Below, piece after piece: positions 10,871 to 59,328 of a stretch of DNA of 64,000 bases. Each line of letters begins with the position of its first letter. The first letter of the stretch is position 1. A model generated the notes under the pieces. The model was not told where the DNA came from. It saw only the letters and a list, made by a program, of their open reading frames with translations, and did not search any database. Source of the DNA: Ignavibacteriota bacterium (GTDB lineage Bacteria; Bacteroidota; Ignavibacteria; UBA10030); contig CAVSHO010000001.1 in NCBI GenBank assembly GCA_963727825.1, forward strand, positions 128,001 through 192,000, written 5' to 3'. Position numbers and translations under genes: made by a program.

Positions 10871-10871
10871 T

Positions 10872-11453: not shown

Positions 11454-11597
11454 GTCCAGATATTTCTTTTTGTTAAAGTGATAAAAAGATACTAAGAACT
11501 AGTTTGATGCGCAATTTTGGGTTGAAAAATGTATTGGTCCTGCCACTTATGTTACTGTTTTGTTGTGCGCAAATACTCTTTAAGGTTCAGCATTGTC

Positions 11598-12409
11598 TTA
11601 ACTTAAAAAACCCTCCACTCTGTGAACTTTGCCAAGTTTCGTTCCGAGGAAGCGTTCTCCAATTTCCGTAAACTTGTGCGGTACATCGCTGACAAAAAAT
11701 TGCAGGTTCGGTTTTTGGGTACTGATGTTGCTTCAATTTCAAGTCCATAAGCATATTCTTGACAACTAATGCAGTTGATTCTCCAGAATCAATCAAAGTA
11801 ACGCTCTGGTGAAGCACCTTGTTGATGACGTTTCGTAAAATAGGATAATGTGTACAACCAAGAACTAAGTGTATCAATCTTCTCGAGTGTCAAAGGGAAA
11901 AGATATTCTTTGGCGATCAACTCAGTTGCTTTGTGATCAATCCATCCTTCTTCGGCAAGCGGAACGAAAAGAGGGCATGGCTGTCCAAATACTTTGATGT
12001 CAGGATCAAGCTGACGAATGGCGTTTGTGTAAGCATTACTGAAAATGGTTCCAACTGTTCCGGCAATACCAATGCGCTTATTTTTTGTTGCCCGTACCGC
12101 AGCCTCTGCTCCCGGAATGATTACACCGATAACCGGCACTTTCGCCCGTTTTTGCACAACATCAAGAGCGACGGCAGATACTGTATTGCAAGCGATGACG
12201 ATGAGTTTGACATCATGTTGAAGCAGCACGTCTGTGTCTTGCAGGGCATATTCACGTACTACCTGTTGTGATTTTGGCCCATATGGTACACGCGCCGTAT
12301 CGCCAAAATAGATAATATTTTCATGCGGTAAATGGTGCATCAATGCGCGTACTACAGTCATTCCGCCAATACCGGAATCAAAAACGCCAATGGGCTGTGC
12401 GTTATTCAT
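11598..12409 (-). CDS. murI: Glutamate racemase, frameshifted (about 11870 and about 11730)
   Basis: FDSGIGG, PYGPKS, IACNT and, in another frame, LGCTHYP. Confidence 0.9.
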
Positions 12410-12791: not shown

Positions 12792-14867
12792 ATGACAAAG
12801 AGTCGGATTGAAACGATACTAAAAGACAGCAATTACCAACTTTTCCTTTTTTCAGTTAAAGATATAAAAGCGTTAGAAGAGCGAATAGTTGAAAAGAACA
12901 AAAAGCTTTATGTCAATTGTATTATCCGAGAAAAAGAAATTCAGTTAAAACCTGAAGAGATCGTTCGCCAACTTTATGCAATGAAGTTGATGAATATCTA
13001 TAATTACCCCAAAAATAGAATTCGCTTTGAACATGCAGTGCAATTTGGCAGAGAAACCAAGTCTTCCGATATTGTTGTATTCGATAAAGACAGGCCAACA
13101 GTTGAATATATTATCGTTGAAGTAAAGAAACCGAGGCTGAAAGATGGAAAAGAGCAATTGAGAAGCTACTGCAACGCAACCGGTGCGCCGATAGGTGTGT
13201 GGACAAACGGCGGACAAATATCACACTACAATAGAAAAGATCCAAACTTTTTTGAAGACATCACCGATATTCCCAACTCCGATCAGACTCTTGAAGACAT
13301 ATTAAAAGAGCGTTTCACTTGGCGTGATCTTATAATTAAGGACAAAATCCCCAACGAAGGGAAATCTTTAAAAACTATTATCACCGAGATGGAAGATGAG
13401 GTTCTTGCCAATGCAGGAGTCGATGTCTTTGAAGAAGTTTTCAAATTAATATTCACAAAATTATATGATGAGCAAAAAAGCCAGAAAGATAGAGACGTCG
13501 TCAATTATTTTTTAAAGAAGAAAAATCTTCCAATGGTAGCAGAAAAGAAAGCAACCTATGGAAATCAATATGAAGGGTCGACGTTCGATGAAGTTAAAAA
13601 GGTGGTTAGTGATGTTGATGATACTTCGTTCCGGATTTTGGAATTTAGAAACACAGGTCAATCGGAGGGTGATCTGAAGAAAAAGATTCAAAAGCTATTT
13701 GATGAAGCAAAGAATAAATGGCCCGGTGTTTTTCCCGATGAGAGTAAAATTGATCTTTCACCTTCCCATCTTTCGGTTTGCATCTCCAGCTTGCAAGATG
13801 TAAAGCTCTTCAATTCCAATTTGCAAGTTATTGATGAAGCATTTGAATACCTCGTTAGCAAATCATCCAAAGGCGAAAAAGGTCAATATTTTACTCCACG
13901 CCATGTTATCGATATGTGCGTTAAAATGCTCAACCCCCAAAAGGGTGAGTATATGATTGATTCGGCTGCAGGATCATGCGGCTTTACCGTGCACACTATT
14001 TTCCACCTGACGGGACATCTTTTTGAGAACACAGAAATATCGCAGGAAGAAAAAGAAGATGTATTAAAAGTTTTCGGTATTGATTTCGACGAAAAGGTTG
14101 TGCGCGTAGCACGAACATTAAACCTCATCGCTGGAGACGGCGAAACAAACGTCCTGCATCTTAATACACTTGATTATGATCGCTGGAATGAAACGGTGAA
14201 TAATGCAGAATGGCGCGATACCTACGGAAGCGGTTTCAAGCGTTTGGAATCTTTAAAGAAAGATCCAAATGCTTTTAAGGAATTTCGTTTTGATGTTCTT
14301 ATGGCAAACCCGCCTTTTGCCGGAGATATTAAAGAATCCCGCATCATTCATAAATATGAGCTTGGATATAACGATAAAAACAAACCCAAACAGAAAGTAG
14401 GACGCGATATTCTCTTTATCGAGCGTAACCTCGACTTCATCAAACCCGGCGGGCGACTGGCGATTGTATTACCGCAAGGAAGATATAATAATACCTCCGA
14501 CAAAGATATTAGAGAATTCATAGCCGATAAAGCCCGCATACTGGCAGTTGTGGGACTGCAGGTTAATACGTTTAAACCGCACACTGGAACAAAAACAAGT
14601 GTGTTATTCTTGCAGAAATGGGATGATAAGCTTTGCCTAAAGAAAGAGGACTATCCTATTTTCTTCGCCGTATCGGAAAAATCGGGCAAGGATAATTCTG
14701 GTGAATATGTGTATGTAAAGAATGGCGATGGCAAGCCGAAGTTAGATAAGTACGGTCACTTTGTTGTTGATCACGACTTGCACAATCACAGTGGCGAATT
14801 GCCTGATGGTGTTGCCGAAGCATTTATTGAGTGGGCAAAGAAAGAAAAACTGAGTTTTTGGAAATAA
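12792..14867 (+). CDS. Fused restriction endonuclease (HSDR_N-like PD-ExK) / N6-adenine DNA methyltransferase
   Basis: N-terminal PEEIVRQ..SDIVVF..IVEVKK; GQYFTPR, DSAAGSCGF (motif I) and NPPF (motif IV). Confidence 0.9.
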   Translation: MTKSRIETILKDSNYQLFLFSVKDIKALEERIVEKNKKLYVNCIIREKEIQLKPEEIVRQLYAMKLMNIYNYPKNRIRFEHAVQFGRETKSSDIVVFDKDRPTVEYIIVEVKKPRLKDGKEQLRSYCNATGAPIGVWTNGGQISHYNRKDPNFFEDITDIPNSDQTLEDILKERFTWRDLIIKDKIPNEGKSLKTIITEMEDEVLANAGVDVFEEVFKLIFTKLYDEQKSQKDRDVVNYFLKKKNLPMVAEKKATYGNQYEGSTFDEVKKVVSDVDDTSFRILEFRNTGQSEGDLKKKIQKLFDEAKNKWPGVFPDESKIDLSPSHLSVCISSLQDVKLFNSNLQVIDEAFEYLVSKSSKGEKGQYFTPRHVIDMCVKMLNPQKGEYMIDSAAGSCGFTVHTIFHLTGHLFENTEISQEEKEDVLKVFGIDFDEKVVRVARTLNLIAGDGETNVLHLNTLDYDRWNETVNNAEWRDTYGSGFKRLESLKKDPNAFKEFRFDVLMANPPFAGDIKESRIIHKYELGYNDKNKPKQKVGRDILFIERNLDFIKPGGRLAIVLPQGRYNNTSDKDIREFIADKARILAVVGLQVNTFKPHTGTKTSVLFLQKWDDKLCLKKEDYPIFFAVSEKSGKDNSGEYVYVKNGDGKPKLDKYGHFVVDHDLHNHSGELPDGVAEAFIEWAKKEKLSFWK
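14832..14864 (+). repeat. 33-bp direct repeat, copy 1 (3' end of the R-M gene)
   Basis: TGGGCAAAGAAAGAAAAACTGAGTTTTTGGAAA, 29/33 identical to 15892-15924. Confidence 0.85.
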
Positions 14868-14879
14868 GGATATTTTGAA

Positions 14880-15890
14880 ATGAAATTAACAAAGCGATTT
14901 GATAAACAATTTTCTGAAGTCGTAAACATGATCCATCAAGCCCGGTATAATGCCATCAAAAGCGTGAATGCCGAGCTGGTAAAATTGTATTGGAACATTG
15001 GCGAATATATCAGCAAAAAAATTGCAGATGCTGAATGGGGCGATGCTGTTGTGGATCAGCTTGCCGATTATATTCAAAACAGCCATCCTGAATTTAAAGG
15101 TTTTACGCGCCGAGGGCTGTATCGGATGCGACAATTTTATGAGGTGTACCGGGATAATAAATTTGTGTCAGCGCTGCTGACACAAATTAGCTGGACAAAT
15201 CACATGCTGATCCTTTCTAAAACCAAATCAAAAGAAGAGCGTAAATTTTATTTAATGCTTTCATTTAAAGAAAAGTATAGCTCGCGTGAATTAGAACGCC
15301 AAATTGACAGCGGTTATTATGAACGGGTAATGCTTACAAAGAAAAAAGTGTCACCACCGGTGACACAAAGTAAAAAAGATATTACCACGGTGTTTAAAGA
15401 CACCTATGTCCTGGATTTTTTAAACCTGCCTGAACTTCACAGCGAAAAAGATTTGCAGAAAAGTATTGTTGCAAATCTAAGAGATTTTATACTTGAGTTC
15501 GGAAAAGATTTTACTTTCATAGGACAAGAATATCGAATTCAGGTGGGTAATAATGATTATTTTATTGATCTGCTTTTCTTTCATCGCGGTATTAGATGCC
15601 TTGTCATGGTAGAGCTTAAAATCACAGATTTCAAGCCGGAGTATCTGGGGAAAATGAATTTCTATCTTGAAGCGCTGGATAGAGACGTTAGAAAAGAAGG
15701 TGAAAATCCAAGTGTCGGCATTATATTATGTAAGTCGAAAGATGATGAGGTAGTGGAGTACGCCCTAAGCCGTCATCTTTCACCTACACTCGTAGCCGAA
15801 TATAAAACAAAATTAATACCCAAGAAAATATTACAGAAGAAACTGCATGAACTGTTTCTTTTGCAAGGTAAGAAAAGCGATGAAAACTAA
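14880..15890 (+). CDS. YhcG/DUF1016 PDDEXK nuclease-domain protein
   Basis: YWNIG, WG, SWT, KDTYVLDFL, IDLLFFH, VELK, GKMNFYL and GIILC pattern typical of DUF1016. Confidence 0.92.
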   Translation: MKLTKRFDKQFSEVVNMIHQARYNAIKSVNAELVKLYWNIGEYISKKIADAEWGDAVVDQLADYIQNSHPEFKGFTRRGLYRMRQFYEVYRDNKFVSALLTQISWTNHMLILSKTKSKEERKFYLMLSFKEKYSSRELERQIDSGYYERVMLTKKKVSPPVTQSKKDITTVFKDTYVLDFLNLPELHSEKDLQKSIVANLRDFILEFGKDFTFIGQEYRIQVGNNDYFIDLLFFHRGIRCLVMVELKITDFKPEYLGKMNFYLEALDRDVRKEGENPSVGIILCKSKDDEVVEYALSRHLSPTLVAEYKTKLIPKKILQKKLHELFLLQGKKSDEN

Positions 15891-15891
15891 T

Positions 15892-15924
15892 TGGGTAGAG
15901 AAAGATAAATTGAGTTTTTGGAAA
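15892..15924 (+). repeat. 33-bp direct repeat, copy 2
   Basis: TGGGTAGAGAAAGATAAATTGAGTTTTTGGAAA immediately after the DUF1016 stop. Confidence 0.85.
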
Positions 15925-15930
15925 AAAGAA

Positions 15931-17372
15931 ATGCAAACCTCCGTTGTAAATTAGCTAAAGACTTAAACTTTGAATTTCGGTTCGATGCCGAGTATTACAG
16001 GGCTGAAATCCTAAAGAATATCAGATTGCTAGATAAAAAAGAAAACGCTGTACTAAGCTGATCTTGCATATTTTGTAATAGGGCCTTTCGGTTCTACCGT
16101 AACAGTAGATCAGTATGTGCCAGTCTCAAATTATAGATATGTAAGAAATAGGGATATAAATGATTTTCAAATCAAGCGATAATGAACAAGCTTTTATACC
16201 TGAGCAAGTTTACAGGGCACTACCTCAATTCCACATTAAAGAAAATGACTTGTTAATTACAGTTGTTGGTATCTTTGGGTAAAGTGGCTATCGCTACACA
16301 AAAAAATGATTCATCAATATTCAGCTGTAAAAGCACGATCATCCGAATTAAAAGGATCGATCCGCTTTATCTACTTGTCTATTTAAATTCAAACGTAGGA
16401 CAGTTATTTGCTTTGCGTGGTGTAAGGGGTGCCATTCAACAAGGATTGAATCTGTCAGATTTGAAGGGAATCAAAGTCATTTATTCCGTCGGAAGATTTC
16501 CAAAAGACTATCCGAGCAAATGTTTCTAAGGCGTTTGTTATTAAACCGCGGAGGCAGAAAATCTTGAAGAATATAGCTCAAGCCGAGCAAATACTTCTTT
16601 CCGAATCTTGGTCTTTTATACTGGAACCCAAAACATCGTCTTTCATTTATCAAGAATTTCTCCGACGCGCAGACCAGCAAGCGCATCGATGCCGAATATT
16701 TCCAGCCGATGTATGAGGAAGTGGTCAAATCGATCAAAGCATCAAAAAACCATTCCAAGTTGGGCGACATTGTTTCAATTAAAAAGTGCATTGAGCCGGG
16801 GAGCGAAGCATATCAAGATAGCGGTATTCCATTTTTAAGAGTTAGCAATATTTCTAAGTTCGGAATTAATAATGACAATCAGCAATACGTTTCCGAGTTA
16901 TTATACGAAAGTCTCAAAACGTACCAGCCAAAGAAAGGCGAAATTCTCTTATCAAAGGATGCTACGCCGGGAATTGCATATTACTTAAAAGATGCGCCGG
17001 GAAAAACGATTCCATCCGGCGGAATACTAAGGGTAACAGTAAAAGATACAAACTATGTTTATCGTGAATATCTTCACTTTAGTCTTGAATTCAACTATTG
17101 TTCAAAAACAAATCGAACGCGATGCGGGCGGATCAATAATCAATCACTGGCTTGTTGATCAAGTGAAAGATACTTTAATCCCAATTCTTCCCATATCAGT
17201 GCAAAAGAAGATTGCGGAAAAAGTTGATCAATCATTTTCTGATCGTAAGCAATCAAAGCAACTTCTTGACATCGCCAAGCGAGGTGTAGAAATTGCCATC
17301 GAGAAAAGCGAGGCAGAAGCAGAAAAGTGGATGAAGGCAGAAGAGAAAAAGATTGTAGAAGGAAAAGCCTAA
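15931..17372 (+). pseudogene. Restriction specificity (S) subunit with two TRDs, multiply frameshifted
   Basis: RFDAEYY and RIDAEYFQP repeats, GPFGS, PFLRVSNI, C-terminal LIPILP..QKKIAE..AKRGVEIAIE; many frame changes (true decay or read errors). Confidence 0.8.
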
Positions 17373-23170: not shown

Positions 23171-23524
23171 ATGAATCGGTTTAAGAATTTAAGAGTTTAT
23201 GAGAAAGCACTTGACTATTCATTTGCTGTTCGTCAATGTGTAAGGAAATTTCCGAAGGAAGAAATGTTTGGATTAATCTCTCAATGGCGAAGAGCAGCAG
23301 ACTCAATTGTTTTAAATATTGCAGAAGGCGCAGGAAATTCATCAAAATTGGAATATGCCAGGTTCTTGGATATTGCTATTCGTTCCGGGTTTGAATGTTT
23401 AGCTTGTTTAGATATCGCGATTCGGAGTAAATATGTAGATAAAATAAATTATGACGAACTCTCTTCTCAGACAAATGAAATTATTGCCATGCTGGATGGA
23501 TTGAAAAAAGCAATCAAGAAATAA
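23171..23524 (+). CDS. Four-helix-bundle protein (23S rRNA IVP / TIGR02436-like family)
   Basis: FKNLRVYEKA, FPKEEMFGLISQ.RRAA.S..LNIAEG and FLDIAIRS..E motifs. Confidence 0.93.
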   Translation: MNRFKNLRVYEKALDYSFAVRQCVRKFPKEEMFGLISQWRRAADSIVLNIAEGAGNSSKLEYARFLDIAIRSGFECLACLDIAIRSKYVDKINYDELSSQTNEIIAMLDGLKKAIKK

Positions 23525-46371: not shown

Positions 46372-46733
46372 GCGATTCTTTCTGTACTGCAGGAGTTGTT
46401 GTCTCTGCCTGTTGATTTACATATAGAAGATGCACAAAGAGAAAGAAAGTTGCTGTAGAATTTTTGTTATTTAGCTCCCATTGGTATACTTCATCGTTGC
46501 AATCCAACGACTTATTGGCTACATTTTGGGCGAATATCGACAGGGAATATTCCAAGCGCAAACAGCACAACCTGAAAAGATCAAACAATAGAGTCGTGTG
46601 AAATATCGATTAAATCGTAGGAGAAGCAAAATTGCTGGTGAGGATGTTGTGCAATATTTATGCGTTTACGATTGAACAGATGAAAGAAATTGATGGTATT
46701 GTAAAGAGGGTTATGGGGAAGTGATTTTACTTG

Positions 46734-46761
46734 GTAAAGACGTGATGAATCACGTCTCTAC
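46734..46761. repeat. REP palindrome upstream of RAYT
   Basis: GTAAAGACGTGATGAATCACGTCTCTAC. Confidence 0.85.
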
Positions 46762-46768
46762 AGATACT

Positions 46769-47302
46769 ATGACATTATATAAAAACACATTTCGCATCGA
46801 ATCAACGCGATTAAAAGGATATGATTATTCCCAACCCGGTGAATATTTTATTACGATTTGTACACATAATCACGAATGCATTTTTGGCATACTCGCTGAA
46901 GAAGAAATGAAATTGTCACATATTGGAATGATAGCAAAAAATTGTTGGGAAAATATTCCAAATCATTTTCACAATGTTGAATTGGATGAATTTATTGTAA
47001 TGCCAAACCACATACACGGAATAATAATATGTGAAAATAATATTCGTAGAGACGCGATTAATCGCGTCTCTACAGGTGGAATAACAAAAACAAATAATCC
47101 GATGCTGTCGCATAATTCGTTATCAAACATTATTAGGCAATATAAAAGCCGTGTATCACATGAAATTCATAAAACACAACCAGATTTTGCTTGGCAACCC
47201 AGATTTTACGAGCACATCATCCGTGACGAAAGAGATTTGCAGAACACCCGAGATTATATTGTCAACAATCCAATAAAATGGTTTTATGACATCAATTCTT
47301 AA
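46769..47302 (+). mobile_element. REP-associated tyrosine transposase (RAYT, IS200-like Y1 HUH)
   Basis: STRLKGYDYS..YFITICT, MPNHIHGI (HUH), WQPRFYEHIIR and YIVNNP motifs. Confidence 0.92.
47046..47073. repeat. Perfect 28-bp REP palindrome inside the RAYT ORF
   Basis: GTAGAGACGCGATTAATCGCGTCTCTAC, read as RRDAINRVST. Confidence 0.92.
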
Positions 47303-47325: not shown

Positions 47326-50300
47326 GTGCCTTCTATTCTTTTAAACGATACCGAACTTCATTTCCCTAATTTTACTATCGTTTCTGCATCTGCAGGATCG
47401 GGTAAGACGCACACGCTCACGTTAAAAATTTTACAGCTCTTATTGTCTCCGAATGCGCCAAACAATCGGTTGAACAATGTACTTGCGATGACGTTCACTA
47501 AGAATGCCGCCGCTGAAATGCGCCAACGTGTTCTGGAGTATTTGAAGAAAGCATACCACGGTGATAAAAACATTCTTGATCAATTATGCCCTCTCGTTTC
47601 AATGGATGAAGCGGAACTCCGCACTCGAAGTGGTGAATTGATTGAAACAATATTACAGGATTACTCCGCGTTTCAGGTGCAAACGATAGACAGCTTTATG
47701 GCACGAGTGTTTCGCGCTTCTGCGTTGGAGTTTGGTTTTTCACCGACGCTTGAAATTGTTTTGAATAACCGCACAATACTTGATGCGGCTTTTGAACAAT
47801 TCGCCCGCGAACTTGCAACCGACCCGACAAAACGACATCTGCTTGAAGAGCTGACAGATATTCTTGTTGAAAGCCAGTCCCGACAAATCGGAACTTCACG
47901 GTATATTTGGAATCCATTTCAAAAACTCTCAGATGAAGTTCGCAATCTGTATAACATCTTGAGCGCACAATCAAAAGAAGTTCTGTCATTAACGGAAAAC
48001 AGTGGACAGGTGAACACACTGCGCACGGAAATTCTTGATACGTTTCGTCAGCTTCAAGCACTTGTAAGAGATTCAGGATTGGAAATAACTAAGAATTTTG
48101 AAAATGTCACTGATATCGCTAATACCGGAGATGTAGATAAGCTGATAGAATTGAAGAGTGTCAATAAACCGGTAAAAGCAGGTAAATCGAAAGCCGAAAA
48201 AGAAGAAACGGAAAAATGGAACGCACGTTTTTCACAACTGCAGGAAAAGTTCAACTCGCTTGCTGCAGAATATGTTGTGCAGCAGGCATATCAATATTAT
48301 CATCCGTATGTCGAAGCGCATAAATTGTTTCGGGGTACTATCGAACAGATTATGCGGCGCAACAATCAAATTAATCTTTCTGATGTCAACCATACGCTTC
48401 TGCATTACATTTCGGAAGAAATTGTGCCGCAAGTATATTTCTATTTGGGCGATACCGTCTACCATTATCTCATTGACGAGTTTCAGGATACTGCACCAGT
48501 GCAGTGGGAAGCAATAAAGCCGCTGTTCGCCGAGGCACTCTCAAAGCAGGGAAGTCTGTTTGTTGTCGGAGATACCAAACAATCCATTTACGCTTTCCGT
48601 CATGCCGATTGGCGCATTATGAAAAACGTAATGATGAGCAACGTCTTTCCATCGGCGCCGCCTGAAGTGCGAGAACTGGAAATAAATTACCGGAGCTTCG
48701 AACGAATACTTGATTTCAACAAAACGGTCTTTCATTCCATAGTGCCATCTGCAATAGATGGTGACGCACCGCGTGCTAGCGGGTTATCAACTTTCAAACA
48801 AGAGGTAGAAGAAAAGAATAAGAAGAAAGGATACGTTGAGATTGTCTCGTTTGAAAAAGGTGAAGGCCAAGAACAGGAACGTGCGAAGATATTGGAAATT
48901 GTAAATGGTTGTCACACGCGTGGTTATCGATATGGCGATATTACAATCCTGACACCGAAGAATGAACAGGTCGTTACTATCAGCGGATGGCTTAATAAAG
49001 AGCATATTAAGTTTATTTCGCACAGCAGTCTAGATATTCGCGGTCGTGCAATCACCGGTGATGTCATAGCACTTCTTCGCTTTCTTGATTCACCAATTGA
49101 CGACCTTGCATTCGCAACTATTTTACTGAGCGGCACATTTCATCGCGCACTTACCGCTGACAACTTGAAGTTGACGCAAGAGGAACTTCATTCGTTCATT
49201 CTTCAGGCGCGAAGAGCGGAACATCCGGTGTCGCTGTATGCATCTTTCCGCCTGCGTTATGCCGATATTTGGCAGAAATACTTTAATGAACTTTTCACAG
49301 TCGTCGGTTACTTGCCGATGTATGATCTTCTATCAGAAATTTATAAGCAATTTCGATTGTTCGAGATTGCACCCGAGGAAGAAGGCGCACTTGCAAAGCT
49401 GTTGGATGTGATGAAAAATTTTGAAGAGACCGGACAGAATAATCTAAAAGATTTTCTTGCCTTTGCCGATGATGAAGAAGATGATACAGATTGGAATATT
49501 GCTGTACCCCACGGCGAAGATGCAGTTTCTGTAATGACAATCCACAAAGCTAAAGGATTGGACAATCGTGTAGTCATTGTTTTGTTGATAGATTCTAAAT
49601 TACGATCAGATAATTTGTTTGTTGAAGAAAATAGCGACGGTGTCCGGTTAGTGCATATAACACAAAAAAATGCGGCGTTTGATAAGACGCTTATGGAACT
49701 GTACAATCAACACCGTTTTGAACGAGCAGTAGATGATCTCAATAAATTATACGTTGCTTTTACAAGAGCAAAAGAAGAGATGTACGTAATCAGCGTTAAG
49801 ACCAAATACGCCGATGAACCGTCAAAATTTCTGCCATCTTCCGGCTATGAACCGTCGATAAAGCCGGAAGTCGAAAAACAGAAACAAACACAAGAACTAG
49901 TCATGCCCCTGTATCATTCGTCAAGGCGAACACCCGTTAGCAATGCTACATCGGAGAAGTTGGCGTTGTATGAACGCCGCCGCGGCGAGGCTATTCACGA
50001 TGTATTGTCGCAAGTAAAGTTCGCAGGTGCTGATATTGAAATGCTCATATCATCCTCTATAAGGAAAACCGCGGGAAGCTGGATGCAACCAAATGATGAA
50101 GAGCGTATCAAATCGTTGACTTTGGAATTTCTGCGTTTGCCGGAAATAGCGCCATTCTTTACGTGCGTTGAAAACAGAAAAATATTGAATGAGCAAGAGT
50201 TTGTTAATCCAGATGGACGGCTGTTCCGAATGGATCGGATTGTTGTTGATGCAGACGTAGTGACGGTGCTCGATTTCAAAACGGGAGATGATAAAGATGC

Positions 50301-50415
50301 ATATTCAGATCAAGTGAAAGGATATATCAATATTCTTCAGAACTTTTATCCCGGTCGTACAATTCGCGGCGTGCTAGCATTTGTTGACCGAAAGAAATTG
50401 CGGGTGGTTGCATGA
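47326..50415 (+). CDS. addA: UvrD-type helicase-nuclease, AddA-like
   Basis: ASAGSGKT, DEFQDT, VGDTKQSIYAFR, TIHKAKGL and YVAFTRA motifs; C-terminal RMDR..LDFKTG nuclease. Confidence 0.88.
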   Translation: MPSILLNDTELHFPNFTIVSASAGSGKTHTLTLKILQLLLSPNAPNNRLNNVLAMTFTKNAAAEMRQRVLEYLKKAYHGDKNILDQLCPLVSMDEAELRTRSGELIETILQDYSAFQVQTIDSFMARVFRASALEFGFSPTLEIVLNNRTILDAAFEQFARELATDPTKRHLLEELTDILVESQSRQIGTSRYIWNPFQKLSDEVRNLYNILSAQSKEVLSLTENSGQVNTLRTEILDTFRQLQALVRDSGLEITKNFENVTDIANTGDVDKLIELKSVNKPVKAGKSKAEKEETEKWNARFSQLQEKFNSLAAEYVVQQAYQYYHPYVEAHKLFRGTIEQIMRRNNQINLSDVNHTLLHYISEEIVPQVYFYLGDTVYHYLIDEFQDTAPVQWEAIKPLFAEALSKQGSLFVVGDTKQSIYAFRHADWRIMKNVMMSNVFPSAPPEVRELEINYRSFERILDFNKTVFHSIVPSAIDGDAPRASGLSTFKQEVEEKNKKKGYVEIVSFEKGEGQEQERAKILEIVNGCHTRGYRYGDITILTPKNEQVVTISGWLNKEHIKFISHSSLDIRGRAITGDVIALLRFLDSPIDDLAFATILLSGTFHRALTADNLKLTQEELHSFILQARRAEHPVSLYASFRLRYADIWQKYFNELFTVVGYLPMYDLLSEIYKQFRLFEIAPEEEGALAKLLDVMKNFEETGQNNLKDFLAFADDEEDDTDWNIAVPHGEDAVSVMTIHKAKGLDNRVVIVLLIDSKLRSDNLFVEENSDGVRLVHITQKNAAFDKTLMELYNQHRFERAVDDLNKLYVAFTRAKEEMYVISVKTKYADEPSKFLPSSGYEPSIKPEVEKQKQTQELVMPLYHSSRRTPVSNATSEKLALYERRRGEAIHDVLSQVKFAGADIEMLISSSIRKTAGSWMQPNDEERIKSLTLEFLRLPEIAPFFTCVENRKILNEQEFVNPDGRLFRMDRIVVDADVVTVLDFKTGDDKDAYSDQVKGYINILQNFYPGRTIRGVLAFVDRKKLRVVA

Positions 50416-53198
50416 GCGAACGCATCGTCCTCAGTTCAACAGATCATCTTATTGAAACTGTTGCTTCTCATCTGGAAGCGCAAGGAAGAGATTTCTCAAC
50501 TACCGCAATTGTTTTCCCAGGAAAACGCCCTGCGCATTTCTTGCGTAAAGAGCTTGCTCATCGTGCTGGCGGCAGTATTATTCCCCCAAAATTATTTTCT
50601 GTGGATGAATTTATTATTTCGCTTTATGAGCAACTTCATCCGGAGCCCGTACACGATCTGGAATCGATTGATGCTGTCGCATTGCTTTACCTCGTACATA
50701 ACGAATTAAAAGAACGGTTAGGCGGCAACTACTTTGCATCACTTGATGCATTCATTCCAATTGGATTGAAGTTGTTTGGTGAACTGGAAGAACTCAAGCT
50801 GGCTCATCTTCCCGAAAGAAAAATAAAAGAAGTAATATCAGCACTTACATACAACCGGCTATTCTCGCTTGTTGATTATTATACAAAGTTCTACATGCTT
50901 GTTGCAGAAAAAGGTTTTACGACGCGTGCTGTCCGTTACGCAGAAGTTGCCGAAAATATCGATGAATTGGATCTCAGTGGCTTCACCCAGATTATTGTGG
51001 CAGGATTATTCAAGCTGACTCACGCCGAACAAATCATTTTTAATGATTTAGAAAAACGTTCAAACACGCTGTTTGTGTTTCAAGCGGATAAAATTGAAGA
51101 AGGAACGCCAGAACCAGAAATTCACTTCTATAAAGCATCCGATACGCACGGACAGGTCTTTGCACTTTCGGCTCTTATCAAGAAACAATTAGATAATGGC
51201 TCACAACTCGATGAACGCTCGGTGATTGTTCTGCCGACTGCCGATGCGCTCTTTCCTGTGGTACACCAAACACTTTCGCTTATGCCGCAGGAACAATATA
51301 ATATTGCGCTTGAATATCCGATGGCGCGCACACCGATTTACGGTTTTCTTAATAACCTAATGAAATTGTTATGCACGAAGCAAGGAGAACGGTACTCAGC
51401 AGCACACTATATAAAATTTATTTTGCATCCATACACTAAAAACATTCGCTTTGGAAATCGAACTGATATCACACGCATACTTTTTCATGCTATAGAATCG
51501 GAGCTGACGAAAGATAAATCTAAAATTCTGTTGACGTTAGAAGAGATAGAGCAGTCGGATGAAATCTTTACGAATATCTCATTAGCAATTTCAGATTCTG
51601 ACATTAAAGTTACATCGGAGCAAATGAGAGAACATCTTCTTGTTATACATTCAAGCACTATCCATATTCTTGAAAATATTGTCTCAGTTAAAGAATTCGC
51701 ACACAATATCATAAAAGTTCTTACTTACATTTACGATCAAAGCACCGCTTGTCTACACCCGCTGTTTCGTCCTTATGCAGAAGCATTGTTAAAAGTGTTT
51801 CTGCACTTAGAAGAGTCGTTTGTTGGAAGTGCATCGTTTCGCGATACCTCTGGGTACTTCAATTTCCTTCAGCAGTATGTAGCCCTTCAAGATGTTCCGT
51901 TCCCCGGCACACCGCTTCGTGGTTTGCAAGTGCTCGGTTTATTAGAAACGCGTAGTCTGCACTTCGATGATGTATATTTTTTAAATGTGAATGACAACGT
52001 AGTACCCGGCGGCATCGGCGGCGACATGCTTTTGCCGCAGCAACTGCGTGAAAAATTAGGATTGGAGACTAGGCGCGATCGGGATAAATTAAGCGAGTAT
52101 TATTTTTATCTGCTTGTGCGCGGAGCAAAACGGGTACATCTATTTTATTCGGAATCAGGGGAGAGTGATAAGAGCCGATTCGTTGAGCAATTGCTGTGGG
52201 AACGCCAGAAACGGGATGGTTCGAACTCATCCGACAATTACATTCAGACAGTGCGTTATCAAGTGAAACTTGCCAATGAAGCAGTTCGGCCAATTCCAAA
52301 ATCGACTGATGTGCTCGCAATGATGCATGGATTTACGTACAGCTCAAGCTCGTTAGATACGTATCTGCAATGTCCGATTAAATTCTATTACAGACACATT
52401 TTGCACATACAAGAAAAAGAAGAAGCATCGACCGACCTCGATAATCAGGATATCGGTATCTTTGTCCACGAGGTTCTAAAAAAATTCTTTGAACCATGTA
52501 TAGGAAGGAGATTAGAAACACACGATCTATTGCCTGAGCGCATGAGACAAATAGTAGATGACTTGTTCACATTGAAATTCGGAACGGATCCGGCAGGAGC
52601 GGCATATTTGCTGAAACGTCAAATTCAACGGCAATTAGAATCACTTCTCAAAGATTACCAACAGCCGGTGTCAGAGGAAAATGAAATTATTCTTAAGGGA
52701 CTTGAAGAAAAGATTTCCGTCCATACATTAGGAGCAAAGTTTGAAGGGCGCCTTGACCGTATTGAACAACGCGGCAATAAGATTTTCATTCTCGATTATA
52801 AAACTGGACCAAAACCAAGTAAGCCGCCGATTAATTTCGGCAAACTCAATCTTAATGAACGGGAAAGCTGGAGTGAAGCAGTTATGTCTTTGCAGCTGCC
52901 GATGTATCTATTGTTGTTTAGTATTTATACAAAAACTGCGATAGAAGAAATCGTTCCTGCGTACCTCTATCTTGGTAAGAACCGGCTCAGCAAGGAATGT
53001 GAAGAGGCTTTTATGGAGGGCACAGAAGAACGGGCGGCTGGTTTTGAGCAAATCAAACAGTTCATCGAGCTTTTACTGAAAGAGATAAACGACAGTGATA
53101 TTCCTTTCTTGCCGCCTGTCGATCTCAGCAAGACTTGTCCGCGTTGCCCTTATACCGGATTTTGCGGCACAGCATGGGTGCAGGGTTGGAAGGTATAA
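50412..53198 (+). CDS. addB: AddB-like PD-(D/E)XK nuclease
   Basis: ATGA overlap with addA; GLLETR, YLQCP, GRLDR..LDYKTG, LQL..Y and CPRCPYTGFC (Fe-S) motifs. Confidence 0.85.
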   Translation: MSERIVLSSTDHLIETVASHLEAQGRDFSTTAIVFPGKRPAHFLRKELAHRAGGSIIPPKLFSVDEFIISLYEQLHPEPVHDLESIDAVALLYLVHNELKERLGGNYFASLDAFIPIGLKLFGELEELKLAHLPERKIKEVISALTYNRLFSLVDYYTKFYMLVAEKGFTTRAVRYAEVAENIDELDLSGFTQIIVAGLFKLTHAEQIIFNDLEKRSNTLFVFQADKIEEGTPEPEIHFYKASDTHGQVFALSALIKKQLDNGSQLDERSVIVLPTADALFPVVHQTLSLMPQEQYNIALEYPMARTPIYGFLNNLMKLLCTKQGERYSAAHYIKFILHPYTKNIRFGNRTDITRILFHAIESELTKDKSKILLTLEEIEQSDEIFTNISLAISDSDIKVTSEQMREHLLVIHSSTIHILENIVSVKEFAHNIIKVLTYIYDQSTACLHPLFRPYAEALLKVFLHLEESFVGSASFRDTSGYFNFLQQYVALQDVPFPGTPLRGLQVLGLLETRSLHFDDVYFLNVNDNVVPGGIGGDMLLPQQLREKLGLETRRDRDKLSEYYFYLLVRGAKRVHLFYSESGESDKSRFVEQLLWERQKRDGSNSSDNYIQTVRYQVKLANEAVRPIPKSTDVLAMMHGFTYSSSSLDTYLQCPIKFYYRHILHIQEKEEASTDLDNQDIGIFVHEVLKKFFEPCIGRRLETHDLLPERMRQIVDDLFTLKFGTDPAGAAYLLKRQIQRQLESLLKDYQQPVSEENEIILKGLEEKISVHTLGAKFEGRLDRIEQRGNKIFILDYKTGPKPSKPPINFGKLNLNERESWSEAVMSLQLPMYLLLFSIYTKTAIEEIVPAYLYLGKNRLSKECEEAFMEGTEERAAGFEQIKQFIELLLKEINDSDIPFLPPVDLSKTCPRCPYTGFCGTAWVQGWKV

Positions 53199-54070: not shown

Positions 54071-54691
54071 CTAAACTGTCCAAATTCTCAGAAGAGCCGC
54101 CGCGATCTGACACACGCCAAGCATCGCAAGTATTATTGCTGATATAAGAATAAGTGCGCGCCTGCCGCTTGATCCCAGAAAGCGTGTTGTTCCGAAAAGG
54201 AAAATAGTACACGCCAAAACAGTGACCATCGTTGTGTAAAAGGCGATGATGAGCACAACAGCACTCGTAGAATTTTGGTGCCATGCTGCCAAGACAGCGG
54301 GTCCTAAAACCAAACTCCAGCCGAGATAAGGATTGGGGTTAAGCATATTTATTGTTGTCGCTTGCATAAGAGTACGTGGCGCCGAGTTGTTTGTATTAGA
54401 CTCTGTTTTGGTTTGTTGTTTCCATTGCTTATAACTTGCCCATGCTAAATATGCTAGAAAAATACCGCCTCCTGCTTGTAGAATCCTGCTCATTGTTTCT
54501 GGGATGCGATTGAGTACAAATAGAGTAAGAATTGCGATAGGCCCGTCACTAAGAAGTGGGGCGAAAGAGGCAGGCAATGTGCGTCGCCAGCCTTTCTGCA
54601 CAACACTGGATAAAAGAAATGCTTGCAAAGGACCGGGCTGAATAGCTGCAGCGAAAGCGAACCCACATCCGATGAGAAAATATTCGAGCAT
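54071..54691 (-). CDS. LysE-family translocator
   Basis: PGP motif, SDGP and LNPNPY motifs; about 6 TMs. Confidence 0.88.
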   Translation of the reverse strand: MLEYFLIGCGFAFAAAIQPGPLQAFLLSSVVQKGWRRTLPASFAPLLSDGPIAILTLFVLNRIPETMSRILQAGGGIFLAYLAWASYKQWKQQTKTESNTNNSAPRTLMQATTINMLNPNPYLGWSLVLGPAVLAAWHQNSTSAVVLIIAFYTTMVTVLACTIFLFGTTRFLGSSGRRALILISAIILAMLGVCQIAAALLRIWTV

Positions 54692-54822
54692 TTTTTCAGT
54701 CCTTCTTGTTAGGATTCATGTCGAGCGGAAAAATCGGGCGAAGAGCAACGAATTAGCTAACGTAATTTTTTTTTAATCATAAAAAAAATATCATACAACG
54801 ATTGATCTTACTATATGGGCCT

Positions 54823-55020
54823 TCACATTTTAAGGAATTCAAGTAATTTATACATTAAAATAGCCGGCCATACCAACGCTTTGATAAAGCCCAATACACC
54901 GTCCCAGAAGGAGGCTGAGTGTTGTATAAAGTAAACGGCTGCCCCAATAAACGCCAAACCGTAAACACTGCTAAAAGTTATATTGTTATTCGCTGCCCTT
55001 TTATTATCATAATCTTGCAT
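54823..55020 (-). CDS. Small membrane protein
   Basis: GGAG RBS; YGLAFIGAAVYFIQH..FW.GVLG..KALVWPA. Confidence 0.7.
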   Translation of the reverse strand: MQDYDNKRAANNNITFSSVYGLAFIGAAVYFIQHSASFWDGVLGFIKALVWPAILMYKLLEFLKM

Positions 55021-55296
55021 GGTTATCTCCTATAGTCGATATTGGATTATGTTACGTTTGCCAGTGGAAAAATTGCGGGTTATGCCATCACCATTTATAA
55101 ATAATTACCAAGAATTTTTCTACAAGGAATCTTTTTCTTTCATCGACAAAGGTCTATCATTTGCCATGGTTTCAGCTTTGGCAATTCTATTTTCTCATTC
55201 ACTGTTTTTCTTTACTTGAGCTTTTTGTTTACGAGTTAGTTATGAAGGTGTTTTCTGTTTCGTGCTTGAAGAATCAATCTGAATACTTTCCTACTA

Positions 55297-55785
55297 TTAA
55301 TCGAACTCCTTACGAGGCTTGGATTGCTCCAACCCAACTTTGCCGATAATGATATCAGCTTTGAAATAATTTTCACCTCTTATAGGCGCGCCTGATAAAC
55401 GTCTCAGCATAGCAAGTTGGCCAACATGCGTGAAAGCATCCGCAATCGGCCCCTGGAACAACTTATCTAATGGGCATGCGATTGGGGAATTGCTTGCCAA
55501 GTATGTATCGAACTTCTGCAAAGAATCGCAGAAACGGGCAACCTCACGATTCCAATCCTGAGGGTGGGAGTCAAGCCAAATCTCCTCTCCTTTTAACATT
55601 GAAAGCGCCCAATCAAAAAGATCGCCCATATGGGCAAGGATTTCAACTGGTGCCCGGGATTTTGTATCCACACGAAAAGTTGCGAAGGTATCGGGAACGT
55701 CACGAATCGTTTTCGTTGCTCGATAAGCCAAGCTGGCAGCAATATGCCGAAACATTTCGCGATTGTGTTCAGATTTCATTGTCAA
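55297..55785 (-). CDS. DinB/YfiT-like protein
   Basis: EILAHMGD and DAFTHVGQLAMLRR motifs. Confidence 0.75.
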   Translation of the reverse strand: MTMKSEHNREMFRHIAASLAYRATKTIRDVPDTFATFRVDTKSRAPVEILAHMGDLFDWALSMLKGEEIWLDSHPQDWNREVARFCDSLQKFDTYLASNSPIACPLDKLFQGPIADAFTHVGQLAMLRRLSGAPIRGENYFKADIIIGKVGLEQSKPRKEFD

Positions 55786-55817
55786 ACTATCCTCATGAGT
55801 CTATATAATGCAATCGC

Positions 55818-56432
55818 CTAACGCTGTTTTTGTTCTTCATGTATTGGGTGATCAGCAAACGCCAGTTTTGATGTCACGACGATCCGTTCCTGTTCGATGA
55901 CAAGGTTTTGGGCAACAGGCTTGATAAAAATCGTTTTCTTGCTTCCGTCCGGAAGCGCAACGTCGACACTTGCTTGCATCGGTTGCGGGCCCGCGAATTC
56001 GAATTCCGGCTTATAGAACCTCGCAGCATCGATGTCTGTGATATGGATTTTCTTTCCGAAAATTTTAATGTACACTTCAAAGGTAGCATGTAGAACTTTG
56101 ATCGAGATTCTGTTCGATTCCGGGTGAAAAAGGACATCTACATTCCCGGACGCTTCTGAACCATAGGATAACGGTCCGGCGTGGATGTCTGCATCTGCAA
56201 TGAATCGCGCCTGATTCGGACGCAATTCGATTCGGGCATTGCGGAGAGTCCAAGTGTAATCTCCATGCATTCCGAGTACATTATATTGATCTTTGCCACT
56301 AATGGGACCAATGGCATTAAAGAAACCGTTCAGTGTATTCTGGTGAATGATCACTGTTGCATCGGGAGGTGGTACAGGATTTCCTGTCTGAAAACAGATC
56401 AGTGTTGTAAGAATGAAAAGAGATGTTATCAT
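55818..56432 (-). CDS. Hypothetical exported protein
   Basis: AGGA RBS, N-terminal hydrophobic stretch, beta-rich 204-aa ORF. Confidence 0.65.
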   Translation of the reverse strand: MITSLFILTTLICFQTGNPVPPPDATVIIHQNTLNGFFNAIGPISGKDQYNVLGMHGDYTWTLRNARIELRPNQARFIADADIHAGPLSYGSEASGNVDVLFHPESNRISIKVLHATFEVYIKIFGKKIHITDIDAARFYKPEFEFAGPQPMQASVDVALPDGSKKTIFIKPVAQNLVIEQERIVVTSKLAFADHPIHEEQKQR

Positions 56433-56562
56433 TGTAATTCCTTTAAGATTGTACTTTTAGATTTAACAAATTGATTGCATATCTATTTCCTTGTGAGCTT
56501 CACCCGTGTAAAGGTTTGCAGTATTCCATCTTAGGCATGAGAGCCGCCAGTAAGGCAGTTCT

Positions 56563-56784
56563 TCATTCCATTATTTGTCTTAGTTTTTTCTGAAATCTTA
56601 TTTTATCAAAACCCTCTGTAAGCGTTGTTACTCCCAACATTAATAAAATTGGGTGAATGATATTGTCTCTTGAAAATAGAAATGCAGCTATGAAAGTCAA
56701 GAGGCCGAGGACTTGCAAATATATTGTTTCTTTCTTTGAAGGCATAAGTTTTTCAAGTTCCTCAATTTTTATTTCAGTTTTCAT
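56563..56784 (-). CDS. Small 2-TM hypothetical protein
   Basis: GGGGG upstream of ATG 56784; two hydrophobic segments. Confidence 0.55.
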   Translation of the reverse strand: MKTEIKIEELEKLMPSKKETIYLQVLGLLTFIAAFLFSRDNIIHPILLMLGVTTLTEGFDKIRFQKKLRQIME

Positions 56785-56898
56785 ATAACCCCCAGCGTTT
56801 AATTTAGACACTAAATTAATTTTAGTGATTGACTACATATCAGAATTATAATCTTCATTGTTTTCCTTTGCCGCCAATTGTTAACAGGGAAGGGAATT

Positions 56899-57267
56899 TC
56901 AAAACAGCAGCCATTTCCTGGCTTCATCAAAAGTACGAAATACTTTTGGTTCAAATCCCACCTCTTCTGAAAAAACGGAACCCATACGCATCAGACCATA
57001 CGGCAAATCTTTTGGAGCAACCAAAGCAATACGATTATTGAAACGTTTAGCCAGAGGTGCAAGAGAGTGTGCCATGGTTATGACATCTTCCCGAGACCTA
57101 TTATAAATACTTCGAGAATCACTCAGATTAATCAATATGAAAGGGTTGGCCGGACACATAGAATCAGCAAGCGAGTTAAGAATAATAGTGCGAATATCGT
57201 CCATTGAATATTCACCAGCCAATTCTACGACAACAATATTAGAATCGAATCGATATGCCACCGGCAT
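56899..57267 (-). CDS. STAS/SEC14 (SpoIIAA-like) domain protein
   Basis: RIALVAP..YGLMRM..VFRTFDEARKWL; AGGAGG RBS. Confidence 0.75.
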   Translation of the reverse strand: MPVAYRFDSNIVVVELAGEYSMDDIRTIILNSLADSMCPANPFILINLSDSRSIYNRSREDVITMAHSLAPLAKRFNNRIALVAPKDLPYGLMRMGSVFSEEVGFEPKVFRTFDEARKWLLF

Positions 57268-57310
57268 TCTGTTACCCCTCCTTTCTTATAATTACATATA
57301 ATCTTTTACT

Positions 57311-57363
57311 GCCTAATGGGTAATTTACTCGCCATCTTTTAGGCAGAAACGCCTCGGTTAGGC
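57311..57363 (-). other. Degenerate attC-like site
   Basis: Minus strand GCCTAAC 10 nt after the stop of 57374-57808, ending ATTAGGC; internal L boxes not recognisable. Confidence 0.45.
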
Positions 57364-57373
57364 GCTTTACTAT

Positions 57374-57808
57374 TTAATTCTGCATTACTTTAATTTTTTC
57401 AGCAGTGGATTTTAGAGTTGATATTGTATATTGTTCCTCACATTTTTTCCATTCTTCGTTGCCTGCAAATGCCATAACTCCAAACAATGGTAGGACGGTA
57501 CAAATAATCAATAAACCTATAGCAACTTTTATAGAAAGAATTAAAAGTAATAAAGTTGAAACAATTCCACCCCGCAAAAGTACATAATCGAATAGAATAA
57601 ATCTTGTTTTCCCTTGAACGCGAATCTTCTCCCAATTCAATAATCGCCTCTTATGAGCCAGTATCTCTGAATAGAAGATTAAAGCAATTATAATAAATCC
57701 GATTAGATTAAATCTAAAATTAGAAAAGCTAAATCCTTGTTTCCAATATATGATTGAAATGAATATTAGCGCAATAATAATTTGAATAATTAACGATTTC
57801 CTTTTCAT
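57374..57808 (-). CDS. Hypothetical membrane protein (eroded gene cassette)
   Basis: About 4 TMs, AT-rich; ends flanked by 14/17 complementary sequences containing an integron-like core. Confidence 0.65.
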   Translation of the reverse strand: MKRKSLIIQIIIALIFISIIYWKQGFSFSNFRFNLIGFIIIALIFYSEILAHKRRLLNWEKIRVQGKTRFILFDYVLLRGGIVSTLLLLILSIKVAIGLLIICTVLPLFGVMAFAGNEEWKKCEEQYTISTLKSTAEKIKVMQN

Positions 57809-57869
57809 AGTAGAGCGCCTGGCTATGCCAACCACCAACAAGATAATACAAACACAACGCCAAAATTAC

Positions 57870-58145
57870 TTAATGAGAATTATTATGAGAACTATCCTTT
57901 AGCCGCAGAAGAGGTCTGTCCGGAACAAAAAGTTTAAGAGTATCAGATTTGTTCGGGCTTATTTCTTTCTTAATAGATTTATGCTCTTTAAGCATCTGTT
58001 TAGGTGTTTGTTTCTTCAATTTATTTTTCTGAACACCGGTAGTATCTGAAGATGCTGGTGCGGACTTATTTTCCTGTGTGGCCTTTGCCGTTAGAATATA
58101 GAATGTGAAACCTAAAGCTAGAGTGATTATCAAAAGTTTTTTCAT
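57870..58145 (-). CDS. Small secreted Lys-rich hypothetical protein
   Basis: GGAG RBS; MKKLLI signal peptide. Confidence 0.6.
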   Translation of the reverse strand: MKKLLIITLALGFTFYILTAKATQENKSAPASSDTTGVQKNKLKKQTPKQMLKEHKSIKKEISPNKSDTLKLFVPDRPLLRLKDSSHNNSH

Positions 58146-58168
58146 AAATATTCTCCAGAATGGTAGTT

Positions 58169-58326
58169 ACCTAACGGATGGCAACTAAGCTGCGGCAACG
58201 ATAACCCGCAAGTTGCTGATAACGAAACAAGTTCATGCTGAAAAGTTTATTATTAAACATCTGAACCTCTACGCGCCATGCTTAACGTACCACGCTCATA
58301 CCGTCAGCTTGAGTTGCTGGTTAGGC
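58169..58326 (-). mobile_element. Integron attC site
   Basis: Minus strand R'' GCCTAAC-CA-GCAACT-C-AAGCTG-A-CGG ... CCG-CAGCTT-AGTTGC-CATCC-GTTAGGT R', with two unpaired bases at canonical positions. Confidence 0.88.
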
Positions 58327-59087
58327 AGCAAAATATTTGGTTTACGATAAATTCTTTTATTGTGATAATCTATATAATCTTGACAAATGGGAATCGCATC
58401 AATAGCGACATTGATTTTTCTTGGTTCAATCTGGATAGCACCGTAATCTAACTTTGCATGACAATTAGGACAAACACAGAGAATATTATCTCGTGAATCA
58501 GGTCCATTATGAGGAGTACCAAGCGGTTTGATATGATGAGATTCAGCGTATAATTGTCCATTATCGAACTCAACACGAAAACCACATACTTGGCAGCGAC
58601 ATTTATATAATTCCTTTATTTCTATAGAAAGTTTTGTATCACGAATAATTCTTCTGACCGTTATTGTTTCTCTACCTGGTTCATCTGGAGGAACCTCAAT
58701 ATCGCTAGCCTCTGAAATCTCTTCTGGTTCTGCAAATGTGAAGTTAGTATTGGCAGTTTGCGCATCATTAAAAGATCTCAAAGAAACGAATCGTTGAGAA
58801 CCATCTTTATATATATCAACAAATATTACATCGCCCACCTTGAGTGATTTGACAGGATTTATATATGGCGTATCAAAAAGAAGTTGATAATATGGCGACC
58901 AGCTAGACACAGAAGAATAGATGTGACCTATTGCCTTAGCACCATCAGGACAGATAATTGTCACATCCTGCCGCTCCTTAACGAATCCCTCCTTCTCCAT
59001 ACTTGGAAAATAACGCTTTGGGATTGTTATTGGATGCGTATGATAGTTAACAAAAGCCTCACCGATATTAAAAATAAATGTGATCAT
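58296..59087 (-). CDS. HNH endonuclease (McrA-like C-terminus) gene cassette
   Basis: CQVCG, ESHHIKPL, GPD..NILCVCPNCH motifs; the stop lies inside the attC (LPNQQLKLT). Confidence 0.9.
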   Translation of the reverse strand: MITFIFNIGEAFVNYHTHPITIPKRYFPSMEKEGFVKERQDVTIICPDGAKAIGHIYSSVSSWSPYYQLLFDTPYINPVKSLKVGDVIFVDIYKDGSQRFVSLRSFNDAQTANTNFTFAEPEEISEASDIEVPPDEPGRETITVRRIIRDTKLSIEIKELYKCRCQVCGFRVEFDNGQLYAESHHIKPLGTPHNGPDSRDNILCVCPNCHAKLDYGAIQIEPRKINVAIDAIPICQDYIDYHNKRIYRKPNILLPNQQLKLTV

Positions 59088-59108
59088 ACTTGTTTAAATG
59101 AAGTTATT

Positions 59109-59140
59109 ATATTTTGCTGCCTAACTAATGATTAGATAGA
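59109..59140 (-). other. Cassette insertion site (attI-like or secondary attG-type core)
   Basis: Minus strand TCTATCTAATCATTA-GTTAGGC; 59109-59125 is the exact reverse complement of 58320-58336; no attC arm upstream. Confidence 0.6.
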
Positions 59141-59328
59141 GTAGCTTTATAATTCTTGCATATAGTCAAAAATTATAGACAAAAAGTGAAGCAGTCTTTT
59201 TCCCCGTTCTACTTTTTAAAATGTTGTTGTTCTGTATTAACTCCCGCACCTCATAATTCAAATACTCGGCATTAATCTACTGCACTCAATGCACTTTGTC
59301 AATAAATATAAGAATCCCAAAATTTCTA

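Follow-up and report, generated by a model that had tools for sequence, protein, structure and literature searches.

How does a gene cassette with an intact attC site come to lie in a chromosomal region where no integrase gene is found, and did it arrive there alone or as part of an array? This question is raised by a locus in an uncultured Ignavibacteriota bacterium (Bacteroidota in GTDB), which is read here on the minus strand of the window, this name referring to the whole stretch of 64 kb that was analysed. According to the data presented below, the cassette, which carries a gene for an HNH nuclease, is interpreted with a probability of about 60% as the first cassette of a chromosomal integron-type array without an adjacent integrase. 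Under IntegronFinder-style definitions, the genome studied here holds a single attC lacking an integrase, and its relatives hold a small CALIN.

Layout of the cassette

The head of the array is a conserved non-coding leader (59308 to 59126, minus strand), delimited by alignment of the window with two related loci, L002 and L013. It is followed on the same strand by the core site GTTAGGC (59125 to 59119), where G 59125 and T 59124 flank the crossover point. From there the cassette extends over 950 bp (59124 to 58175, minus strand), with G↓TT at both ends (the arrow marks the crossover point) and a GC content of 0.375 versus 0.417 for the window. It consists of one promoterless ORF and then the attC. 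The ORF (59087 to 58296, minus strand), separated from the core site by a 37-nt untranslated stretch, encodes a protein of 263 aa with a predicted B3-like DNA-binding fold and an HNH nuclease domain, and its last 10 codons lie inside the attC. The attC itself (58326 to 58169, minus strand) measures 158 nt and comprises R'', L'', a variable part, L' and R', as delimited by the covariance model R2, a motif scanner, the predicted fold and homology with the attCs of L002.

R'' plus 10 nt (58320-58336) and the first bases of the cassette (59109-59125) form the two arms of an inverted repeat that is 100% complementary over 17 nt, in which the cassette's own first 16 bases pair with the R'' side. As the R'' side complements the cassette's own start, rather than the sequence at present located after the attC, the arrangement is the one that recombination at G↓TT predicts. 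When the excised circle was modelled, the 17 terminal pairs formed at probabilities of 0.74-1.0, and the fold of the circle gave z values of -4.9 (bottom strand) and -6.4 (top strand). An earlier sequence-only reading of this DNA had described an intact integron-type cassette with a canonical 158-bp attC bearing R''/L''/L'/R' boxes and two extrahelical bases, and a perfect 17-bp inverted repeat. All of its coordinates check out in the sequence, the boxes and extrahelical bases are also seen in the minimum free energy (MFE) fold and in the model alignment, and R2 matches the site.

Boxes, fold and stem of the attC

The terminal boxes on the minus strand, R'' GCCTAAC (58326-58320) and R' GTTAGGT (58175-58169), fit the core-site consensus RYYYAAC/GTTRRRY. 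This is also the case for class 1 attCs such as that of aadA1 from plasmid R100, with which the window shares the order of ORF and attC as well as the crossover at G↓TT. Both the model alignment and the top-strand MFE fold computed for the site without flanks show that, in the 5' arm, R'' is followed by 5 nt, a 3-bp stretch, an unpaired C, a further 6 bp, an unpaired A and then additional stem; the layout and spacing are identical to those of the aadA1 attC (window, ACTCAAGCTGACGG; aadA1, GTTCAAGCCGACGC). The extrahelical bases are thus C and A on the top strand and G and T on the bottom strand, and the latter two are presumably the bases recognised on the bottom strand. R-box pair probabilities are ~0.9 when the exact site is folded, and with 9-14 nt of flank (181 nt) the fold is not better than that of shuffles (z -0.74 and -1.41).

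The window attC deviates from class 1 sites in several respects. Its 3' spacer has 8 nt, whereas that of the aligned class 1 sites has 6; three spacer positions form extra pairs, which covary, and the complementarity extends to 17 bp; and the site is long, with 158 nt versus 58-114 nt in 12 delimited class 1 sites. In the attCs of the window and L002, which span 158-196 nt, the spacer that is unpaired in class 1 is partly paired. The stem shows covariation between both, GCAAC/GTTGC in the window versus GGCGC/GCGCC in L002, with three L-stem pairs changed on both sides. Unlike class 1 integrons, the window lacks an adjacent intI or attI1, and the host belongs to a different phylum.

The variable part of the attC holds at 58211-58230 a 75% direct repeat of the L''-R'' end (58312-58331; AGTTGCTGATAAC... 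versus AGTTGCTGGTTAGGC...), whose core TCAGCAACTTG is kept in L002 although the L stem of L002 differs. In the MFE fold, this repeat acts as an alternative pairing partner for the bottom strand. No further copies of the window attC family were found by blastn-short within the window.

Recognition of the attC by a scanner and by covariance models

A strict scanner, requiring RYYYAAC...GTTRRRY at 50-200 nt and at least 6 of 7 complementary R-box bases, with inner arms scored by local alignment, returned the window attC as the sole site in the 64 kb, with an inner-arm score of 24 compared with a maximum of 15 in 20 shuffles. A genome scan had given 46 related loci (700,647 nt), on which the window proteins were mapped, and no site reached a score of at least 16 in them. 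The scanner must be considered insensitive, since it missed real sites of L002 and L013, which have R'' GGCTAAC or a large length.

Covariance models were built from class 1 attCs of plasmid integrons, 12 of which were delimited by hand. The model R1, made from five of these sites (four of them near-identical), found nothing significant in the window, including the window attC, and missed two of the 12 delimited sites (dfrA1 and estX). The model R2 comprises eight rows (seven distinct class 1 plasmid attCs), structure-aligned using R1; MAFFT alignments were left out of the models because they misaligned the 3' arms. R2 recognises 58326 to 58169 over its full length with 27.7 bits and an E-value of 4.8e-5, the E-values of this model being rough owing to a shortened calibration. 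In a search of both strands of the 64 kb with filters off, the window attC alone fell below E 1, the next match having 10.3 bits (E 2.8). Held-out class 1 attCs (aadA1 twice, catB3, aadB, qacL, cmlA5 and cmlA1) scored 44-65 bits, and that of estX was missed. With respect to the related loci, R2 gave 23.9 bits (E 7e-4) for the first attC of L002, 15.2 bits for the half attC of the same locus and a weak 11.6 bits (E 1.6) for the first attC of L013 (122 nt), and a search of all 46 loci under default filters matched the two L002 sites only. Rfam, at gathering thresholds and at E<=10, gave no relevant match, and no attC family was among the matches.

A conserved leader and other cassettes in related loci

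The leader is flanked by a gene for a protein of 419 aa (p419) that is well conserved in uncultured Ignavibacteriae/Bacteroidota MAGs. This neighbour had been called a glycosidase, a label that is unverified because p419 is without a family assignment (no match in Pfam or NCBIfam, and a best PDB sequence match of E 0.095). The synteny GldF-GldA-p419 is kept in L001, L002, L006 and L013, and the flanks formed by p419 and the leader are 76-86% identical. At the DNA level, L002 can be aligned with the window from p419 as far as window position 59115, at the cassette junction, where the homology stops, and two separate stretches of L002 match the window attC at 77-88%.

In L002, the leader ends in ...TCTATCTAATCAGTAG↓TTAGCC and is followed by a 369-aa ORF (cassette 1), whose attC (6117-6312) has an R'' side complementary to the cassette's own first 12 bases; cassette 2 comes next, with half an attC in the record. 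L013 shows the same leader, with a T9SS-sorted gene between it and p419, and an end ...TCTATCTAATTAGTAG↓CTAGGC, in which the core GCTAGGC is mismatched at the crossover. At least three cassettes follow this junction, with attCs of two kinds (one of 122 nt) and decayed R' ends further on. The R'' of L013 cassette 3 complements the cassette start over 12 nt with one mismatch, and an L'-R' remnant matching the window attC is located after a gene for a 162-aa protein. In the window (17 nt), in L002 cassette 1 and in L013 cassette 3, R'' pairs with the start of its own cassette and not with the neighbouring bases.

Behind one and the same leader, and at one and the same junction, L002 and L013 thus have cassettes that differ from that of the window but bear related attCs, which indicates a target other than a random secondary site. 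In L006, the flanks are the same, but leader and attC are lacking, and genes for an EamA-type transporter and a GNAT acetyltransferase (10285-12170) take the place of the leader and array, identifying the locus as a variable spot in the lineage. Neither an HNH homologue nor an empty junction, for which the relatives were checked, was present in the 46 loci. The sequence-only reading had named as evidence against itself the lack of an attC-model match together with the lack of an empty-site allele or related attC in the lineage, and what was found is the R2 match and the related attCs of L002 and L013.

L013 also contains a 103-nt segment in two copies (14460-14562 and 15027-15129) that are 97% identical, bracketed by GCGCTC and placed at the same position inside the L'' arm of two neighbouring attCs. 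This segment, absent from the window and from the other 45 loci, may be a small insertion targeting attCs, or the two attCs may be paralogous.

The leaders of the window, L002 and L013 have a length of ~200 bp, a mean column identity of 77% and an invariant block at the junction, where the end at the crossover is near-invariant (...TCTATCTAAT.A.TAG↓). A promoter-like sequence, TTGACA-17 nt-TAGATT (59274..59302, minus strand), points into the cassettes; it is the best consensus match in the region (10/12), and its two hexamers are unchanged across the three aligned leaders. Evidence for a conserved RNA fold in the leader was not convincing (covariation term -0.32), and R2 does not identify the leader itself as an attC. 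Comparison with the attI1 of R100 (CTAA-AACAAAG↓TTA, versus CTAA-TCATTAG↓TTA in the window) shows CTAA, six bases and then G↓TTA in both, in agreement with the attI1 simple-site spacing that had been proposed for the upstream flank. From these similarities we infer that the leader may be an attI-like site with a putative cassette promoter, as suggested by three sequences, two from MAGs and one, L002, with an N gap.

The probable downstream array and the missing integrase

The window genes downstream of the attC occupy the position of the L002 and L013 arrays. They begin with five small ORFs on the same strand (91, 155, 122, 82 and 204 aa; 55786..58174, minus strand; GC 0.375), homologues of which were found in none of the 46 loci. 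A 162-aa ORF, a 65-aa ORF and a LysE-family gene follow (54071..55785, minus strand), the first and last of which are common to the distal array region of L013 and were found only there among the 46 loci. No attC passes the models in 55786..58174, where the five small ORFs probably represent older cassettes with attCs that would have decayed. After the 155-aa ORF, at 57309-57364, an attC-like remnant GCCTAAC ... ATTAGGC with a 7-bp palindrome (TGCCTAA/TTAGGCA) can be seen, which stays below significance (R1, 7.8 bits, E 1.7; R2, no match).

No recombinase domain was detected by Pfam in 49 of the 80 window ORFs of at least 110 aa, the other 31 being ORFs that overlap longer ones, and tblastn with IntI1 against the window and the 46 loci gave nothing better than E 2.9. 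The claim that no integrase lies nearby is upheld by both searches. An intI adjoining an attI and an array, as in a complete integron, is seen neither in the window nor in the 46 loci, which means that any integrase acts in trans or has been lost. Complete integrons have been reported in Ignavibacteriae (PMC9024848).

Given at least two attCs without intI as the measure of a CALIN, the window holds one passing attC, and L002 one full and one half site. With one passing attC, the window is by definition a SALIN, and it would be a CALIN only if decayed sites were counted. In 10.1101/2022.09.11.507474, SALIN refers to a single attC without integrase, and genome sites termed attG (GWT-type) are also described. 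According to PMC4889954, most CALIN are without a nearby intI pseudogene, and their proposed origins include insertion by an integron encoded elsewhere and rearrangement separating cassettes from intI. The locus shares with CALIN and SALIN the presence of at least one attC and the lack of a nearby integrase. Unlike those described in the parts of both sources considered (10.1101/2022.09.11.507474; PMC4889954), it shows in three species a conserved leader ahead of the cassettes, and this leader bears a promoter-like site and an attI-like junction.

Elsewhere in the window, an ORF at 46721-47302, just upstream of an AddA/AddB-like helicase-nuclease pair (47326-53198), has a weak match to an IS200-like Y1 transposase (E 9.5e-6, C-terminal part only), and a gene of the '23S rRNA intervening sequence protein' family (23171-23524) is located between gatB and tpiA.

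The nuclease encoded by the cassette

The 263-aa protein matches the Pfam families HNH and HNH_2 at residues 165-220, where C165, C168, H184, H185, N201, C206 and H210, corresponding to an intact HNH (beta-beta-alpha-metal) motif and the zinc cysteines, are invariant in 20 sequences picked for coverage of the N-terminal half from the 120 homologues listed. In NCBIfam, a phosphorothioate-dependent restriction enzyme is matched weakly, and PADLOC gives a match to mREase_IV (E 1.7e-8) restricted to the HNH part. By sequence, the protein is related to TagI (E 7.6e-19) and EcoKMcrA (E 2.4e-8), and its AlphaFold model (mean pLDDT 77) matches TagI and McrA. In this model, the pLDDT of the N-terminal domain (residues 1-110) is 63-92 per 10-residue block, all but one block having at least 75, and the fold of these 110 residues matches B3-type DNA-binding domains and the N-domain of LlaJI.R1 (TM 0.46-0.62 by target length).

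As in TagI and EcoKMcrA, which are modification-dependent HNH endonucleases, a single polypeptide would combine an N-terminal DNA reader with an HNH domain, the latter aligning at the C-terminus, and no methylase accompanies it. In contrast to the readers of TagI and McrA, the N-domain of the cassette protein is predicted to resemble a pseudobarrel of the B3 or EcoRII-N type. On the basis of sequence and model, the protein is probably a type IV (modification-dependent) restriction enzyme, and its most likely role, as a B3-like plus HNH nuclease without a methylase, would be directed against phage DNA.

Full-length homologues are few. One of them, P0001, encoded on a 7.6-kb contig, is 94% identical and ends in LPNQALKLTE, the tail encoded by the attC, in which a replacement of Q by A agrees with the L002-type stem, and more distant homologues end ~13 residues earlier.

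The first-cassette proteins of L002 (4998-6107) and L013 (12902-14041), whose attC types differ, are distant homologues of each other (24% identity over 229 aa, E 1e-5). That of L013 has a weak RiboL-PSP HEPN match, which makes these two proteins possible defence or toxin-type cargo as well. The window also includes a restriction-modification cluster (12792-17158), with a 691-aa HsdR-N-like plus N6-methylase protein, a YhcG PD-(D/E)XK nuclease and a short HsdS-like fragment.

Origin of the locus and alternative explanations

Several explanations compete with that of a first cassette in an array without an adjacent integrase. The locus could be a dead relic, in which the integrase was lost before the species split and the first cassettes differ by homologous recombination of whole arrays through the flanks after gene transfer. 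Such a history, rather unlikely on balance, would be consistent with the lack of an integrase or pseudogene nearby, the decay of most window attCs, the mutation of the L013 core to GCTAGGC and the level of identity between the p419 and leader flanks (76-86%), which could support recombination. However, homology breaks exactly at G↓TT in the window, L002 and L013 and not at variable places, neither the window attC nor its 17-bp complement shows decay, and the cassettes would still need an integrase somewhere for their building. It is improbable that a complete integron exists whose intI merely falls outside the stretch examined, at a distance of more than 4.9 kb on the far side of p419-GldAFG or at another place after a rearrangement. 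The window does end 4.9 kb past the array head, and rearrangement is among the CALIN origins proposed in PMC4889954, but the GldF-GldA-p419 order is kept in L001, L002, L006 and L013, up to 10 kb on the p419 side in L013 and L006 are without an IntI match, and none is present in the 54 kb on the other side.

A lone cassette inserted at a non-specific secondary site of the attG type, with no array, was the explanation that the sequence-only reading had favoured, and it fits the one passing attC of the window as well as the SALIN and GWT-type genome sites described in 10.1101/2022.09.11.507474. This proposal is not supported as a description of the target, which is no ordinary site unrelated to att: it shows conservation, lies ahead of cassettes in three species and is similar to the attI simple site, with other cassettes at the same junction in L002 and L013 and a remnant of the same attC family after the 162-aa gene in L013. 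A lone insertion is therefore quite improbable. Hardly any weight is given to the view that the element is not of integron type, but a palindrome due to chance, a terminator, a MITE or a homing gene of the HNH type that is self-mobile and has inverted repeats at its ends. Although the flanked folds are non-significant and 17-bp inverted repeats flank the HNH gene, an independent attC model matches the site, a third core site lies 158 nt on, the attC stem covaries, relatives swap cassettes at G↓TT, and the absence of HNH homologues from all 46 loci indicates that the gene did not spread locally.

According to the preferred reading, that of a first cassette in an integron-type array without an adjacent integrase, the cassette would have been excised elsewhere as a circle and the bottom strand of its attC would fold, allowing recombination of the circle with the attI-like ...CTAATCATTAG↓TT at the leader end by an integron integrase whose gene is located at another place in the genome or no longer exists. 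The cassette would in this way land first in the array, beside the conserved TTGACA-17-TAGATT, which would transcribe it. It was probably the last cassette to join the old, decaying array, at its head. Of the recent insertion in trans that had been suggested, the integrase acting in trans is retained as the simplest account, and a recent date is plausible, as the cassette stands first and no other attC in the window is intact.

Relation to known systems and significance

The locus is comparable to the sedentary chromosomal integrons of Vibrio and Xanthomonas (on Xanthomonas and on attC homology, 10.1101/2025.06.18.660453 and PMC8352920) in its fixed position between conserved genes, its attCs, which are related within the lineage, and its cassette sets, which differ among related species. 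It differs from them in that they carry an intI gene or pseudogene at the head, of which none remains here, and in that 1-3 attCs can be recognised per array, the arrays being short and in part decayed. The kind of element is already known, and its noteworthy parts are the conserved head without an integrase and the geometry of the attC.

These results add a well-documented cassette array from a phylum in which integrons are barely described, and they show that such sites are still recognised by a model assembled by hand from clinical class 1 attCs. They also provide another defence-type gene, a restriction-like nuclease, as an integron cassette; the storage of anti-phage systems in cassettes is reported in 10.1101/2024.07.02.601719 and PMC12614218. 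A more tentative possibility, for which the odds are clearly below even, is that the leader functions as an orphan attI, equipped with a promoter of its own, which has long been kept with no integrase next to it and is served in trans, and that Ignavibacteriota run 'split' integrons in which platform and enzyme are unlinked. If it is true that the leader is an attI served in trans, this would bear on how integrase-less attC clusters arise and stay active.
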